UHGV virus genome: UHGV-0144957
Strand: one strand, 5' to 3'
Length of the DNA: 50,831 nucleotides
Source: a virus
Of the stretch, positions 7,364 through 50,557 are shown piece by piece. Positions within the stretch are counted from its first letter, which is position 1. Each line of letters opens with the position of its first letter. Under the pieces are notes generated by a model that did not search any database, was not told the origin of the DNA, and worked only from the letters and a program-made list of their open reading frames with translations. The position numbers and the translations under genes are program-made.

Positions 7364-7618
7364 CATTCTGCTTGCGCTTGGCGTCGCTGTCGTCGTGGCC
7401 TTCATCTTTTTCCCGGCGCGCTAACCCTTCCGCGCACCGTCGGGCTACGGCTTCCGGCGTCGGGTAGTCCTCGGCGCGGTATGTCCGCCAGCATGGGCGG
7501 GGTTCGCCGGGAATCAGAATGCGGACGCGCCAGACGTCGCCGTGCCGGGTGAGGAGCAAATGGATAACTGATTCCATATCCCCATTAAAGCATGAGGATA
7601 CATCAAGGGAAATGATCG

Positions 7619-12947: not shown

Positions 12948-12966
12948 GCGAACCTTGTTCACGGTG
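12948..12966 (+). promoter_or_regulatory. conserved late-promoter motif copy 1 (GCGAACCTTGTTCACGGTG)
   Basis: A dyad-containing 19-mer lies 48 nt upstream of the endolysin ATG. Near-identical copies occur at 18179-18198, 27477-27496 and 28861-28878. Confidence 0.5.
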
Positions 12967-13013
12967 CCTCCTCACGCCTCACCGTGGTACAGTGGACGCA
13001 GGAGGATTTTTTT

Positions 13014-18178: not shown

Positions 18179-18198
18179 TGCGAACCTTGTTCACGGTG
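18179..18198 (+). promoter_or_regulatory. conserved late-promoter motif copy 2
   Basis: TGCGAACCTTGTTCACGGTG, 34 nt upstream of the portal ATG. Confidence 0.5.
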
Positions 18199-18231
18199 TA
18201 AATTCTTCTTCGCTCATAGCATGATGCCCTC

Positions 18232-26141: not shown

Positions 26142-26388
26142 CTTCTAAGCCGCCTACACGGCGGATAATAGGACTCTTGTGGGCGTGCTTAATTTGTGAG
26201 ACTTCTAAGCCACCTACACGGCGGATAATTGGCTGCGCGAGCACGTCGATCCGTTGTTGGCTTTCTAAGCCGCCTACACGGCGGATAACTTCTGGTTGAG
26301 CTTCTAAGCCGCCTACACGGCGGATAATTTCCCCCTAAGAGTTGAGTTTGATGCCGGAAACTTCTAAGCCGCCTACACGGCGGATAAT
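26142..26388 (-). CRISPR. orphan CRISPR array, 5 repeats x 28 nt (type I-F-like), spacers 32/32/11/32 nt, no cas genes
   Basis: Repeats at 26142-169, 26202-229, 26262-289, 26301-328 and 26361-388 read CTTCTAAGCCGCCTACACGGCGGATAAT, with single-nt variants in the 2nd and 3rd. The reverse complement ATTATCCGCCGTGTAGGCGGCTTAGAAG matches the I-F consensus GTTCACTGCCGTATAGGCAGCTAAGAAA at 20/28 positions. It has the same 5-bp stem, 5-nt loop and CTTAGAAG handle. The AT-rich leader lies on the right (26389 onward), so the array is transcribed from the minus strand. Confidence 0.8.
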
Positions 26389-26597
26389 AAGAAATATTTG
26401 ATAACTCCTTTTTACTTTTTAGTGGGTTGCATCAACAGCCTTATCAAAACCTTCGTTTTCATGGCTACTTTACAACCACCTTATTTCAAAAGATTTTCCC
26501 AGACAACTTTTTATGAAGCTGGAAGAATCCATAAGAGAGTATGGGGAGTACCATTGCTGGCTGTGATAGGCTCTTTCATCAAGTAAAAGGATTGACA

Positions 26598-27476: not shown

Positions 27477-27496
27477 TGCGAACCTTGTTCACGGTA
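27477..27496 (+). promoter_or_regulatory. conserved late-promoter motif copy 3
   Basis: TGCGAACCTTGTTCACGGTA follows a terminator-like hairpin (GCTCCGAAAGGGGCTTTTGTTTT), 48 nt upstream of ATG 27544. Confidence 0.5.
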
Positions 27497-27543
27497 CATC
27501 ATTTCTTTTTTTCAGGGCATCATCCTGAAAAAGGAAGGTCCGC

Positions 27544-28860: not shown

Positions 28861-28878
28861 CGAATTTTGTTCACGGTG
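28861..28878 (+). promoter_or_regulatory. conserved late-promoter motif copy 4 (degenerate)
   Basis: CGAATTTTGTTCACGGTG lies 51 nt upstream of ATG 28929, the start of the head-completion/tail genes. Confidence 0.4.
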
Positions 28879-28928
28879 ATTTCTCTCCGTCCTTTTTGCC
28901 ATGATGACCAAAACAACGGAGGACAGAT

Positions 28929-43801: not shown

Positions 43802-43835
43802 GGTACCGGGAGTTCGAATCTCCCCCTCTCCGCCA
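43802..43835 (+). other. att core: 3' 34 nt of a tRNA-Ser gene (T-arm + acceptor 3' strand + CCA), no 5' half present
   Basis: GGTACCGGGAGTTCGAATCTCCCCCTCTCCGCCA compares with the canonical tRNA-Ser 3' end ...GGGGGTTCGAATCCCCCCCTCTCCGCCA. No complementary 5' acceptor strand lies upstream. Confidence 0.6.
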
Positions 43836-43849
43836 GAAATTTTAAGGGC

Positions 43850-44911
43850 TTACTGGTTTTCAGTAAGCCCTTTTTTTGTACATTCATTTTCGCTATGCGT
43901 GATTTTATGCGTGATGTCTTCAAAAATGCCAGCAGCTTCCCTGTCGACACCAAGGTCATGCAGATAGATCTCTGTAGTGCGGATGTTCATGTGTCCAAGC
44001 ACCTTCTGCGCCCGGCGCGGGTCTTTGAAGTGGGTAGCCATGAAGTGGCGTAGGCTGTGGGCCGCAAAGAACGGTATACCCGCCTTCTCGCAAAGGCGTT
44101 TCATAAGATACTTGATGCGCGGCGTGGTGCGGGGGTAGGGGAGGCCAGTTCCGGGGGCTTCAAAAACGAAACGCTCATTTTCGCGCAGCGCATAAAGCCG
44201 GAACAGTACACTATATAAGGTAGGACTCATGGCGATGGTGCGCGATTCCCGGTTCCCTCCCCGGCGTTTGCTTGTCCATAACCGGACGGTTCGATTTTCC
44301 AGATCCACATCTTCCCACGCCATTTCCCGGATTTCAGAAATGCGCCCCGCTGTGTGAAGAAGACAGATCAAAAAATCCCGCTCGAAACCAGTAGCGCAAG
44401 CCATGAGCTTGGCAATGTCCCCTTCCGGGGGGATGTACTTTACTGACTGTACCGTTGCGAAAGGTTCCGTCTGCCGAGCAACATTGACCGGAACGTATCC
44501 CTCTCGTGCGGCCCATGAGTAGAGTGCTGATAACTCGATACGGTACTTGTTCGCGGATTTTGCGCTCACGGCTTCCTTGGCCGCTTCGAGGAAGGCTTCA
44601 AGATCGTTTTTTGTGATGGTGGAGAATTCGGTTTTAGGGCCGATGAATTTGTTCAGCTTTCTGAGGACGCTTTTCTTATAGATAAGAGTGTTCTTCTTGC
44701 ATCGTCCTTCGCGTTTTTGCAGATAGAGCGCCGTGACCTCATACAAGGCCAAGCGTTTGGGCATAGTCACGGAGTCCTTGGCGGTCGATTCCCACTTGAG
44801 CGCCTCCAGCTTGGTCAAAAATCCGCCCCGGTACGCGATTCTTTGCCCTCCTTCGAATACTTCCGCCGCGTATCGCATACCATTCTTCGTCTTGTATTTC
44901 CTGATGGACAT
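43850..44911 (-). CDS. int: tyrosine-type site-specific integrase
   Basis: N-terminal arm-binding-type segment SIRKYKTKNGMRYAAEVFEGG. The C-terminal catalytic domain has HSLRHFMATH ... and HMNIRTTEIYLHD (R..H..R..Y). Confidence 0.9.
   Translation of the reverse strand: MSIRKYKTKNGMRYAAEVFEGGQRIAYRGGFLTKLEALKWESTAKDSVTMPKRLALYEVTALYLQKREGRCKKNTLIYKKSVLRKLNKFIGPKTEFSTITKNDLEAFLEAAKEAVSAKSANKYRIELSALYSWAAREGYVPVNVARQTEPFATVQSVKYIPPEGDIAKLMACATGFERDFLICLLHTAGRISEIREMAWEDVDLENRTVRLWTSKRRGGNRESRTIAMSPTLYSVLFRLYALRENERFVFEAPGTGLPYPRTTPRIKYLMKRLCEKAGIPFFAAHSLRHFMATHFKDPRRAQKVLGHMNIRTTEIYLHDLGVDREAAGIFEDITHKITHSENECTKKGLTENQ
43893..43916 (+). repeat. arm-type site pair, right of the att core (CTATGCGTGATT + TTATGCGTGATG)
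   Basis: Direct repeat of 43663-43686, inside the 3' end of the integrase gene region. Confidence 0.55.
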
Positions 44912-45087: not shown

Positions 45088-45582
45088 CTACGCGGCCCGC
45101 TCATACACCCGCGTCCCAATCTCGGCTATCTGCGGATCAACCTTTTCGAGCGCATTGCACAGCTTGGTTAGCGTTTTAAGCAGGTTGTGCCAGTGAAGGC
45201 CCCGGAAGTATGCGGGGCAGGTGTTCCGGGCGTCTTCGAGGAACGTGAGCCCCGCCCACATTCCGGCGGCCCATTGCGTCCAGCGGGTGGCATCGGTGGT
45301 TGCCGTCTGAACATCCCCGACGTGCCCGGCAAGGATATGGAACCGGGCATCTAGATCCCGCTTTGCGCCAGCGGAGAGCCTGCGTTTCTGTGTGTCGTCT
45401 CCGCATCGGTCAAGCCAGCGGTTGACCTTTTCGATCTGCTTGCCAAGGTCGCCGAGGTGAGGAATGGTTTCCGGCTTGAGGAGTGACAGCGCCACGGTGA
45501 TCATTGACAGGGCCAGAACGCAGCGGGTGTGTTGTATGGCTTCGTGCGGGTATGGGATGATGGGGGTGGTGGGTCTTCGCAT
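45088..45582 (-). CDS. hypothetical protein (164 aa)
   Basis: ORF track. Confidence 0.4.
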   Translation of the reverse strand: MRRPTTPIIPYPHEAIQHTRCVLALSMITVALSLLKPETIPHLGDLGKQIEKVNRWLDRCGDDTQKRRLSAGAKRDLDARFHILAGHVGDVQTATTDATRWTQWAAGMWAGLTFLEDARNTCPAYFRGLHWHNLLKTLTKLCNALEKVDPQIAEIGTRVYERAA

Positions 45583-45840: not shown

Positions 45841-46221
45841 TTACGCCTTCGGTTCACGGGGTTCGGGGATGGGGCCAGCCCATAGTTCATATTGAGAACA
45901 TCCCATTCGGCCCAATTGTTCGATACGGTATTTACTCACATTAATAATACACATTTCATTAGGATAATTTTTTGATCTATTCCAATACATACCCGGCGCC
46001 TTCGGCGGCTCGTCCGTCCACGTCAGCGCACGGGGCAGGGCGTTCCACAATGCGGCGGCTGTTTCTCTGGAACCGTGTTCGCTTGTGGTCAAGCATCCCC
46101 GCGTGCATTGCGCGATCCAACCTATTACGACGTGTCCTTTGTTGTCTCTCTCAAATGCATCTAAAATATGTGCTTCCTCGCCACACGCCGGGCACGGTAG
46201 CAACGTCAGTTCTTCGGGCAT
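45841..46221 (-). CDS. Lar-family restriction-alleviation-like zinc-finger protein
   Basis: Start moved to MPEELTLLPCPACGEEAHILDAF... after RBS AAGGAGAGG. The motif CPxCG...C..C...ALWNALPR is Lar-like. The track's longer N-extension overlaps the methyltransferase gene. Confidence 0.5.
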   Translation of the reverse strand: MPEELTLLPCPACGEEAHILDAFERDNKGHVVIGWIAQCTRGCLTTSEHGSRETAAALWNALPRALTWTDEPPKAPGMYWNRSKNYPNEMCIINVSKYRIEQLGRMGCSQYELWAGPIPEPREPKA

Positions 46222-46727
46222 GATTCCTCTCCTTCCCCCACGGCCTCGCGTGCGGCTTTGTAAAAAGTCATCCAGTGCGTATCTCGGCGTTTCGTTGTCG
46301 TATGTCCAAAAACTGGGCGTCTTGAAAAGCAGGAAAGTACCTCGCGCAAGCTGATTTGTGTTTCGTTCCATTTGAAAATCAAAGTTCCGCCCGGTTTCAA
46401 GACCCTCCAACATTCATCAAAACCTTTGGACAGATCTTCACTCCATGTCAGGCGGTCAAGGCTCCCATATTTTTTCTTTATCCAAGACGTTTCTCCAGCC
46501 TGCAAGAGGTGTGGAGGATCGAAGCAAATAAGAAAAAAGGATTCGTCAGGAAAGGGTAACTTGCGAAAATCGCATATCGTATCCGGGTTTACTTCAAAGA
46601 CTCTGCCGTCACAAAGTATATGCTTTTCTCGTCTGCGGTCACAAAATGCAGCACGACGATCATTTTTATTAAACCAAAGCATTTTTCCACCGCAACAAGG
46701 ATCAAGAATTTGTGGTGCCGTAGTCAT
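46206..46727 (-). CDS. orphan DNA methyltransferase (N6-adenine/N4-cytosine class)
   Basis: Motif I ILDPCCGG and motif IV FDPPHLL (the DPPY/DPPH box). Start chosen at MTTAPQ after RBS AAGGGAGATAGAAAG. No restriction-endonuclease partner is seen. Confidence 0.7.
   Translation of the reverse strand: MTTAPQILDPCCGGKMLWFNKNDRRAAFCDRRREKHILCDGRVFEVNPDTICDFRKLPFPDESFFLICFDPPHLLQAGETSWIKKKYGSLDRLTWSEDLSKGFDECWRVLKPGGTLIFKWNETQISLREVLSCFSRRPVFGHTTTKRRDTHWMTFYKAAREAVGEGEESCPKN
46226..46258 (-). repeat. gene-junction repeat copy 1 (encodes ...AAREAVGEG + RBS + start of next gene)
   Basis: Minus strand: AAGCCGCACGCGAGGCCGTGGGGGAAGGAGAGG. Near-identical copy at 46736-46766. Shorter copies at 47269-47284 and 47093-47104. 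Confidence 0.6.
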
Positions 46728-46731
46728 CTTT

Positions 46732-47082
46732 CTATCTCCCTTCCCCCACGGCCTCGCGTGCGGCTTCCACGAGCCCTTCTGGACTGTCATAAAGCCCCGC
46801 CGTCCCGTCAAACGCTATAATCGCCAGCCAGTACAACTCTCTCTCCAACCGTGCTATCTCTACCTCTTTATAGCCTAGCTGTCTGGTGAATAACTCTCGC
46901 ACGTATTTAGTCTCTTCACGCCAGAAAAATGCTTCTTGCTTTAGCCGTGCTATTTCTTCCTCGGTTTGGTTCAGCGCATTAAGTAGCCGAATGGTGAAAG
47001 TCGTGTGTTCTGCATCGAAACAAGTTAAGTGTGAGAGCAGCCGTTCACGCCACTGGTCGCGCGCTTCTTTCGTTGGGATCAT
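46732..47082 (-). CDS. hypothetical protein (116 aa) ending ...EAAREAVGEGR
   Basis: ORF track. The C-terminus is encoded by junction repeat copy 2 (46736-46766). Confidence 0.45.
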   Translation of the reverse strand: MIPTKEARDQWRERLLSHLTCFDAEHTTFTIRLLNALNQTEEEIARLKQEAFFWREETKYVRELFTRQLGYKEVEIARLERELYWLAIIAFDGTAGLYDSPEGLVEAAREAVGEGR

Positions 47083-47267
47083 TTTTCTTCCACAGCCTCG
47101 CGCCTTTTGATTATCTCATCAGCCTTTTTTATCCAGCACAGTTTTCTTGATACGATGTTTTGACAGCTGTGCAGCCCTCTAAGAGTACATCCTTTACATC
47201 CACCAGAGATGGCAAGCAATTCTGCCAATACCCATATCCTTGCGGCATTTCTTTCATTGGAGTTCAT
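47079..47267 (-). CDS. small hypothetical protein (62 aa) ending ...REAVEEK
   Basis: Internal start MNSNERN of track ORF 47079..47303. The C-terminus again uses the GCCTCGCG junction motif. Confidence 0.3.
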   Translation of the reverse strand: MNSNERNAARIWVLAELLAISGGCKGCTLRGLHSCQNIVSRKLCWIKKADEIIKRREAVEEK

Positions 47268-47775
47268 CTTTTCTGACTGCCTCGCGTGCGGCTTCGCGTA
47301 CATCTTCCGGCAACGGCGGATTCATCGCGCCAGAGTCGATATCGGGCATGAGATCGATGTCTATATATGCGTTTGCAAGCCAAATGCTTAGGACATCAGC
47401 CTCCCGATCCAGCCGCTTAATCTCTTGGCACAGCCTGAAAACCGTAGCCGCAGGCCCCATTTCATCGAGCGCCTTGGAGTCTCCGAGCATGTCGCCAACG
47501 GCGGCGGTTCGGATGCGGGCGAGTTCTTCGGTTCGAGTTTGTGGGCCTCTGTGAGGGAGTTGACCACGATTACTATCTGCGGTTCGGGCATCCTCTTTTT
47601 CCCGCTCACTGTTCAATACTTTATCCCAATCTTGAGGGCGAATGGTCGTGCAAAACAGACATCCAAAGGGGCACTTTTCCACCGGACACTCCATTTCTCC
47701 ATTGTTGCACATATACGCCCGCGCAATGGCCTCTTTCGAGCACTGCATGATGGATTCAAGCGTGGTTTCGTTCAT
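47254..47775 (-). CDS. cysteine-rich hypothetical protein (173 aa) ending ...EAAREAVRKDELQ
   Basis: ORF track. Cys cluster CPVEKCPFGCLFC. Confidence 0.45.
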   Translation of the reverse strand: MNETTLESIMQCSKEAIARAYMCNNGEMECPVEKCPFGCLFCTTIRPQDWDKVLNSEREKEDARTADSNRGQLPHRGPQTRTEELARIRTAAVGDMLGDSKALDEMGPAATVFRLCQEIKRLDREADVLSIWLANAYIDIDLMPDIDSGAMNPPLPEDVREAAREAVRKDELQ

Positions 47776-49500: not shown

Positions 49501-49896
49501 CTAGAAGGGCACAGTGTCCATGCCGGAAGATTCAGAGGGGAAGGATGAACCGGATTTTCCTCCATCCTTTTTGTCGAGGAATTGGATGCGCTGCGCTTTG
49601 ATTTCCGTAGTGTATCGCTTCTGTCCCTGCTGATCCTGCCATTCCCGTGTAGATAATGAACCCTCCACGAATACAAGACTTCCCTTGCTCAAGTATTGGC
49701 TGCAATGTTCAGCGGACTTCTGGAATACAACGACGCTATGCCATTCGGCCTTTTGCACCCGTTTCCCTTCCCGATCCGTGTAACTTTCGTCAGTAGCGAC
49801 ATTGAGACGGCAAATTGCCGCTCCGTTCTGGGAATATTTGAGTTCTGGATCGCGTCCAAGGCGTCCGATGATTTCAACACGATTGAGGCTAGCCAT
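49501..49896 (-). CDS. ssb: single-stranded DNA-binding protein
   Basis: OB-fold N-domain (VEIIGRLGRDPELKYSQNGAAICRLNVATDESY...). Gly/Ser-rich tail ending in the acidic/aromatic tip DTVPF. Confidence 0.85.
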   Translation of the reverse strand: MASLNRVEIIGRLGRDPELKYSQNGAAICRLNVATDESYTDREGKRVQKAEWHSVVVFQKSAEHCSQYLSKGSLVFVEGSLSTREWQDQQGQKRYTTEIKAQRIQFLDKKDGGKSGSSFPSESSGMDTVPF

Positions 49897-50557
49897 TTCG
49901 TCCTCCGTTGATGGCGTTCAGAAATTCGGAAACATCGGCTTTTGTCAGTTCACGGGAGCTTGCAATGGGACGCCCGAAGAATCGTGAAAGTTCGGCAAGG
50001 TAAGCTTCTCGGCTGTCACCATGCCGTTTTGTCAGATAGGACATGAGAAGATCTGACTGTTTTTGCGTCATCGGGCTGGTATTTTCCGCCTTTGCCTTTG
50101 CGCGTTGCTGTGCGGCCCCGTTTTTGGGAGCGAGGTGATCCGTTTCGGCGTCTGGGTCAGGCATTTCCTCCGTAGGGATACAGAACGTCTGGAACATGGC
50201 GTATTTCATGGCAATAGACTGCGCCTTGGGTAACGCCTTGTCTCCGCTGTCCATCGCTTCGCCTACTGTCACACAATGAACGCTGGAACCGTCCTCAGCG
50301 TAAAACGTGAAACGCACCTTTGCGGTCACGTAAGCCATGATTGTGCCTTTGGCATTCGCCCGTTCCTCACGGGTCGTTTCCAGCACTTCCGGCACACAGA
50401 ACACGCCATGCTGTGACATGACTGGATGCAAGGCGTTGTAGACATCATCAATTCCTCGGAACTTAAACGATGCAAAACCACTGGTTTGTCTATCCTTACC
50501 GATTGAGCCACAATCACGCATCACTGCAATGATTGCACTGTAGATCTTTGCTTCCAT
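49889..50557 (-). CDS. erf: ERF-family single-strand annealing recombinase
   Basis: N-terminal ...SGFASFKFRGIDDVYNALHPVMSQHGVF... is typical of the ERF superfamily. It overlaps the ssb start. Confidence 0.7.
   Translation of the reverse strand: MEAKIYSAIIAVMRDCGSIGKDRQTSGFASFKFRGIDDVYNALHPVMSQHGVFCVPEVLETTREERANAKGTIMAYVTAKVRFTFYAEDGSSVHCVTVGEAMDSGDKALPKAQSIAMKYAMFQTFCIPTEEMPDPDAETDHLAPKNGAAQQRAKAKAENTSPMTQKQSDLLMSYLTKRHGDSREAYLAELSRFFGRPIASSRELTKADVSEFLNAINGGRNG

Follow-up and report, generated by a model that had tools for sequence, protein, structure and literature searches.

How phage genomes come to be mosaic is a long-standing argument, in which exchange via short conserved linkers is set against random illegitimate joining followed by selection; to our knowledge, most mosaic borders carry no linker. 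Linkers of this type have been proposed for lambdoid phages in the form of boundary sequences: in a model that PMC3029335 attributes to Susskind & Botstein and to Clark et al., short conserved sequences between unrelated flanks at gene borders would allow modules to be exchanged by general recombination with genes kept intact. Here, we describe a comparable element in the UHGV virus genome UHGV-0144957, a stretch of 50,831 nucleotides that is referred to as the window in the following. The phage is a temperate one of Bilophila wadsworthia, and its early operon occupies the right end of the window (~43.8-50.8 kb) on the minus strand; four successive junctions among the small genes of this operon carry copies of one repeat. 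In relatives, this block of ~35 nt joins many different upstream genes to many different downstream genes, and we consider it likely to be a linker that is itself translated, and where accessory-gene cassettes are shuffled by homologous recombination.

Further systems of this general kind have been described in other phages. In mycobacteriophage Island3, the C-terminus of one gene recurs in the gene inserted downstream of it (genes 67/68), over 18 C-terminal residues and ~50 bp of DNA, which the authors read as recombination between short repeats; the relative Brujita does not have the insert (Pope et al., 2011; PMC3029335). In the hyperplastic regions of T4-type phages, accessory open reading frames are flanked by PeSLs, intergenic units of a sigma-70-type early promoter and a terminator stem-loop, and recombination between PeSLs leads to insertions, deletions and replacements (Arbiol et al., 2010, PMC2839356; PMC4122927). 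Lastly, the genomes of Cluster K mycobacteriophages contain start-associated sequences (SAS), a 13-bp non-coding motif (GGGATAGGAGCCC) located 3-7 bp upstream of start codons, which also occurs in an extended form with 17-bp inverted repeats (ESAS); no role in recombination has been proposed for them (PMC3203893). Our literature search returned no description of junction repeats in Bilophila prophages.

At the core of the repeat is the 16-mer AAGCCGCACGCGAGGC, which has three exact copies on the minus strand of the window (47279-47294, 46751-46766 and 46243-46258). When up to three mismatches are allowed, four matches are observed against 0.88 expected, and none of 100 shuffled sequences reaches this count. 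The copies at the C/D and D/E junctions (gene names as in Table 1) are identical over 28 nt (46739-46766 vs 46231-46258), and this identity reaches 31 nt given one 1-nt indel (GGGAGAT vs GG-AGAG). As direct repeats, the copies are spaced by 508 and 528 bp. A degenerate fourth copy at the end of gene B, CGCGAGGCTGTGGAAGAAA, differs from the 3' half of the repeat at three positions; by chance, 0.07 matches of this quality would be expected. The canonical full block, AAGCCGCACGCGAGGCCGTGGRGGAAGGGAGATGA, consists of three parts: the last 11-12 codons of the upstream gene, which encode (E/K)AAREAV(E/G)EGR up to the stop codon, a Shine-Dalgarno sequence, and an ATGA in which this stop codon overlaps with the start codon of the downstream gene. 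At each junction, the purine-rich end of the repeat lies immediately 5' of the ATG of the following gene. On the protein level, gene C ends in ...EAAREAVGEGR and the methyltransferase encoded by gene D in ...FYKAAREAVGEGEESCPKN (encoded tail, KAAREAVGEGEESCPKN); gene A, which ends in ...REAAREAVRKDELQ, has six further codons beyond the motif, and gene B (...KRREAVEEK) has only REAV. The original prediction, made from the window sequence, is thereby confirmed in its essentials: the junction repeat is real, ~31 bp of conserved DNA are found between the C/D and D/E copies, and the repeat supplies the ribosome-binding site and start codon of the next gene. Its statement that all four upstream genes end in AAREAV is somewhat too broad in view of A and B, and the start of gene E, given as 46220, is at 46221.

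To follow these junctions through natural relatives, we compiled a set of 70 related early regions, taken from prophages of Bilophila wadsworthia and from metagenomes of the human gut. A megablast search with the early region found no match among 50,697 deposited phage genomes, none of which is closely similar. A scan for the 16-mer in viral contigs of IMG/VR returned 77 loci, of which 10 are true relatives and the others are chance in-frame codings of the EAAREA type; a pattern scan of human-gut metagenomes returned 21 contigs, and a 21-mer scan of genomes eight matches, with Bilophila wadsworthia ATCC 49260 as the only relative and the other seven due to chance. Furthermore, a repeat-independent sample of 39 loci was fetched via a conserved neighbouring protein (window 45088-45582). 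Block instances were counted at up to three mismatches, and flank classes are clusters of the 50 nt on each side; the loci that were found by pattern are unsuitable for measuring the degree to which the block is conserved.

This set contains 50 block instances, 32 of them unique, in which 11 left and 16 right flank classes are joined in 23 combinations. Among these loci, similarity starts at the first A of AAGCC and stops at ATGA, and the flanks diverge directly outside. Among the left partners are the methyltransferase and C-terminal modules of the A/C protein family, the latter of two types; among the right partners, we find gene B, the methyltransferase and the Lar-like gene E, as well as several genes that are absent from the window, i.e. 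F07 (MNTTVQ...), F25 (MNDNYI...) and genes starting with MSRTRD..., MNKIES... and MMDESL.... Junctions of the copy 1 type, too, have at least two different upstream partners in relatives. For the square of A-type and C-type left flanks with F07 and E as right flanks, all four combinations were found, each in at least two independent contigs or protein clusters: A-type to F07 in L093 and L100, A-type to E in L009 and in the proteins P0033 and P0042 (9 contigs), C-type to F07 in L027, L032, L103 and L139, and C-type to E in L102 and in P0002 (10 contigs) and P0006. A complete four-gamete square of this kind can only arise if left and right flanks have been exchanged across the block. Likewise, a G/A polymorphism within the block (GTGGGGG vs GTGGAGG) is seen with several left and several right classes, and the ends of BLAST segments coincide with the block in L009, L013, L027 and L062. 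In the repeat-independent sample, the block again emerges as one of ~10 homology islands whose left and right flanks each fall into several classes.

The direct repeats in the window predict two deletion products, A-E and C-E, and both occur in nature. In L009, A is joined to E via a single copy of the block, which is equivalent to the loss of 1,036 bp, including B, C and D, between copies 1 and 3 of the window. On the base level, this locus follows the end of window gene A up to the 16-mer and the window D/E junction thereafter, with the switch inside the 16-mer. In L102, C is joined to E and the methyltransferase is absent. Proteins ending in ...PEDVREAAREAVEEGEESCPKN and ...SPERLVEAAREAVEEGEESCPKN recur on many contigs. 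The recombinational shuffling of accessory genes that had been proposed for this region is thus supported by the 23 flank combinations, by the BLAST breaks at the block edges and by L009 and L102, and the expectation that related phages would have exchanged genes exactly at these boundaries has been borne out.

As in the lambdoid model, we find a conserved border sequence between unrelated flanks, mosaic breakpoints that coincide with it, and reticulate left and right partners. Unlike the boundary sequences as they are presented in the citing article, the Bilophila block is translated, such that unrelated proteins receive the same C-terminal tail from it; it also holds the Shine-Dalgarno sequence and the start codon of the following gene, it is present in 3-4 copies per genome, and its many partners are documented across a natural population. 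Island3 gp67/68 is a close likeness, but represents a single event in one phage pair, whereas the Bilophila linker serves at least 11 upstream and at least 16 downstream partners, and the origin of its tail can be traced to a paralogue family. With PeSLs, the block shares the logic of a cassette with one repeat, and here as there the repeats flank accessory open reading frames and explain insertions, deletions and replacements between relatives; unlike PeSLs, however, it has no promoter, terminator or stem-loop and is a junction of coding and translation-initiation sequence. With SAS, it has in common that it is confined to the non-structural half of the genome, lies directly 5' of start codons, contains a Shine-Dalgarno core and is associated with genes of different families. 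The SAS motif itself has no match in the window with up to two mismatches, and, unlike ESAS, the block has no inverted repeats. We conclude that the Bilophila linker is a further example of the known boundary-sequence route to phage mosaicism, and an unusually well documented one.

While the exchange pattern at the block is shown by the comparison of relatives, the crossovers would have arisen by homologous recombination on ~30-35 bp of identity. In the course of events that we propose, the tail codons would derive from the native C-terminus of the tandem paralogue family to which A and C belong, and unrelated cassettes, such as the methyltransferase gene and gene B, would have become fused to this tail. 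Given copies at several junctions per genome and at equivalent junctions in co-circulating relatives, the copies could then recombine with each other, with one gene and one linker as the unit of exchange. Unequal exchange in replicating genomes, or between co-infecting or resident relatives, would result in the deletion, insertion or replacement of genes, and exchange at the linker would maintain both the upstream reading frame and the downstream translation start, such that both neighbours stay translatable. The phage's own Erf/SSB module probably aids this exchange; the genes for Erf, SSB and Gp157 are located 2-3 kb upstream of the linker region. Minimal lengths for efficient pairing have been given as 23-27 bp for Red-beta and 31-34 bp for RecA, and Erf-family recombinases are efficient on short and diverged homologies (PMC3945230). 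With 28-35 nt, the block is at or above the published Red-beta/RecA minimal pairing lengths.

Several points weigh against this account. Many of the contigs are low-coverage metagenome assemblies, in which a shared block of 35 nt could seed chimeric contigs, and the combinations in L089, L095 and L104 each stem from a single, unreplicated contig, although the key combinations are replicated. In the 3' half of the block, translation signals alone suffice to explain the conservation. Moreover, the seven tail codons show 22 synonymous and 26 non-synonymous codon differences among 18 DNA variants, which are few and non-independent; these counts hint at some peptide constraint, and part of the conservation may reflect protein function. 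Finally, the recombination enzyme at the linker, the frequency of exchange and its intermediates are all things that we infer.

The alternative that fares best, albeit a rather unlikely one, regards the block as a conserved expression element that couples the translation of successive early genes, possibly with the help of an upstream enhancer, and not as a substrate of recombination; breakpoints would lie at gene borders because illegitimate recombinants with joints elsewhere were lost. The 3' half of the block, which reads GGAGG/GGGGG...GGGAG and then ATGA, is suited to this role. In L130, a remnant of the block stays untranslated 5' of the methyltransferase start, and in L109 and L137, a 1-nt insertion shifts the reading frame with the DNA retained; in addition, the SAS of Cluster K set a precedent for conserved start-proximal repeats (PMC3203893). 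Yet the 5' 16-17 nt of the block have no Shine-Dalgarno role and are nevertheless the part that the A/B-type junction shares, and the one in which L009 switches partners. Illegitimate joining, for its part, predicts neither the same 35 nt between all partners nor a shuffled internal polymorphism. RNA structure is also absent: at six junctions, folding is no better than for shuffled sequence, with z values between -0.32 and +0.81. None of the Rfam matches falls on the repeat, and no promoter-like or terminator-like site was found at any of its copies. A structured cis-regulatory RNA was rejected as a candidate on account of folding z values of about 0 and the missing Rfam match. At the same time, a contribution to expression is compatible with the linker explanation and not exclusive of it.

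Pure protein paralogy is very unlikely to account for the repeat. In this explanation, the tail is a common functional C-terminal peptide, for instance a helix that docks on a shared partner, and the DNA similarity is a by-product. Genes A and C do align over their last 50 residues (E=6e-4), and in 79 database homologues of gene C, a common N-terminal TKEERDQWRER module is combined with one of at least seven C-terminal modules. Each of these modules finishes in an (R)EAARxAVEEGR-like tail, including DNA-diverged versions such as WREAARRATEEER and WRDVAHKAVEEGR, and judged by these sequences the tail is therefore native to one paralogous family that includes A and C; the over-representation of synonymous changes in the tail also speaks for a conserved peptide. 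By contrast, the methyltransferase and gene B show no homology to this family, and homologues of the methyltransferase from other phages do not carry the tail: four of them, from Acinetobacter, Streptococcus, Enterobacter and Pectobacterium phages, end 0-9 residues past the conserved THWxxFxK motif, with unrelated endings. The alignment with these homologues ruled out that the tail is part of the methyltransferase fold. Moreover, the identity between genes C and D is limited to the block, where copies 2 and 3 match at every synonymous site over 28 nt, and stops where the coding sequences turn unrelated; on the sequence level, this is sharing of DNA and not of a domain. Since neither the methyltransferase nor gene B is related to the family and methyltransferase homologues are tail-less, paralogy does not explain 28-35 nt of DNA identity that include synonymous sites, and it also leaves unexplained why the downstream gene switches exactly after the block. 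The caveat attached to the original prediction, i.e. that the tail could be a conserved domain of homologous proteins, consequently holds for A, C and their family, and fails for the methyltransferase and gene B.

A dedicated site-specific, integron-like system, in which a recombinase or nuclease recognises the block and moves cassettes, is extremely improbable: direct repeats do surround single-gene cassettes, and presence/absence variants resemble precise excisions, but no copy has the inverted repeats or hairpin potential of integron attC cassettes, no integron integrase accompanies them, the sole nearby recombinase being an ordinary phage tyrosine integrase beside a tmRNA 3'-end fragment that points to a chromosomal attachment site, and the internal polymorphism is shuffled against both flanks, which suggests variable crossover positions. 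This fragment (43807-43824, plus strand), which lies beside the integrase gene (43850-44911), weakly matches the final 18 positions of the tmRNA model (E=0.018), and suggests a phage attachment site in the host ssrA gene.

The early operon encodes, in this order, the Erf-family annealing protein, SSB, a Gp157-like protein, several small genes and the tyrosine integrase. Searches of Pfam and PHROGs returned no function for genes A, B and C. The coordinates of the genes and linker copies are compiled in Table 1.

Table 1. Genes and linker copies in the early operon, in window coordinates.
Feature	Position	Strand	Description
Erf-family single-strand annealing protein	49889-50557	minus	Pfam PF04404, E=2e-22
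SSB	49501-49896	minus	Pfam PF00436, E=7e-39
Gene A	47254-47775	minus	173 aa; C-terminal module in the TKEERDQWRER/...EAAREAV paralogue family
Linker copy 1	47279-47295	minus	5' half only, GAAGCCGCACGCGAGGC; within the 3' end of gene A; exact 16-mer
Linker copy 1, diverged 3' part		minus	AGTCAGAAAAGATGA; carries the start of gene B
Gene B	47079-47267	minus	62 aa, Cys-rich; no family match; cassette between linker copies
Degenerate linker copy, B/C junction	47084-47102	minus	CGCGAGGCTGTGGAAGAAA, then ATGA stop/start overlap
Gene C	46732-47082	minus	116 aa; full paralogue-family member, with the tail as native C-terminus
Linker copy 2, C/D junction	46736-46766	minus	Encodes ...AAREAVGEGR and stop of gene C; Shine-Dalgarno sequence for the methyltransferase gene (ATG 46727)
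Gene D	46206-46727	minus	DNA methyltransferase, 173 aa; foreign 16-residue tail; cassette flanked by 28-31 nt direct repeats
Linker copy 3, D/E junction	46226-46258	minus	Codes for AAREAVGEGEE in the methyltransferase tail; Shine-Dalgarno sequence of gene E (ATG 46221)
Gene E	45841-46221	minus	Lar-like protein

Gene A is chimeric. Its junction, near 47531/47532, is located at a GAACCGAAG motif that also terminates F03 genes (TEPKE before the stop codon). The N-terminus of gene A (MNETTLESIMQC...) is an independent gene of 65-76 aa in relatives, and the gene A region also contains a frame-shifted leftover of another gene (MPEPQIVIVVNS...) at 47609-47531. In Bilophila wadsworthia ATCC 49260 (L059/L119/L082), the open reading frame that enters the linker (oriented L059, ~7540-7611) reads ...QEWLDELERLMEAAREAVEEGR up to its stop codon, and consists of the start of the F03 family (MTAQEWLDELER...) fused directly to the linker tail. 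This fusion looks like the result of a deletion at a short ...ERLME... microhomology.

The block is not the only sequence of its kind in the early region. The ~10 islands mentioned above come from a k-mer scan, in which short sequences were sought that have multiple flank classes to the left as well as to the right; the repeat-independent sample gave the same result. The first ~49 nt of gene E (46181-46229) form a second island adjacent to the block, as a result of which different upstream genes all end in ...(S/A)CPKN, and a block coding for PIPEPREPK (45883-45847) forms another. Islands with several different flanks on each side among relatives were noted at 48996-48975, 48683-48665, 48654-48626, 48199-48173, 47532-47510, 46229-46181, 45883-45847 and 45632-45604, and include two terminator-like hairpins; they are probably additional linkers. 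With ~10 multi-flank islands in the early region and a chimeric gene A, it seems reasonable to extend the mechanism to the phage lineage, as has been suggested.

Other repeats were observed elsewhere in the window. Five copies of a 28-nt repeat, CTTCTAAGCCGCCTACACGGCGGATAAT, are found at 26142-26391 with a period of 60 bp (spacers of ~32 nt) and one 11-nt spacer between copies 3 and 4. Four of them match the Rfam family CRISPR-DR4 on the minus strand with 34.7 and 28.2 bits, just under the gathering cut-off of 35, and the arrangement looks like a phage-borne mini CRISPR array. The motif CGAACCTTGTTCACGGT has four copies on the plus strand (12949-12973, 18181-18205, 27479-27503 and 28861-28885), two of them after a terminator-like GGGGC-T-run-GCCC sequence, and could be a late promoter or a regulator-binding site. 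At the left end, the repeat of a cassette array, GG(C/T)TTTTCGATGGGGCTAGGC, has three copies (742-762, 1104-1124 and 1363-1383), which are 362 and 259 bp apart.

Beyond a linker that merely permits exchange, one may envisage an evolved exchange site, in which tail, Shine-Dalgarno sequence and start codon form a portable unit that is kept uniform for the sake of exchangeability and might be actively favoured by Erf/SSB/Gp157 or a nuclease, with cassettes possibly moving as excised circles of one gene plus linker. We consider this unlikely; if true, the early region would be a recombinase-driven, integron-like platform for gene exchange in the gut phage population. As a translated linker, the block offers a lesson for annotation, in that a C-terminal peptide common to unrelated small phage proteins can reflect genome architecture and not function. 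Furthermore, Bilophila wadsworthia is culturable, and the lysogen ATCC 49260 is available from a culture collection, such that the linker explanation can be put to the test; it predicts a dependence of exchange on linker identity and on erf. With one 35-nt block, many partners, the predicted deletion products and a traceable origin, this locus speaks for linkers as a source of phage mosaicism with a clarity that is unusual for a natural case.

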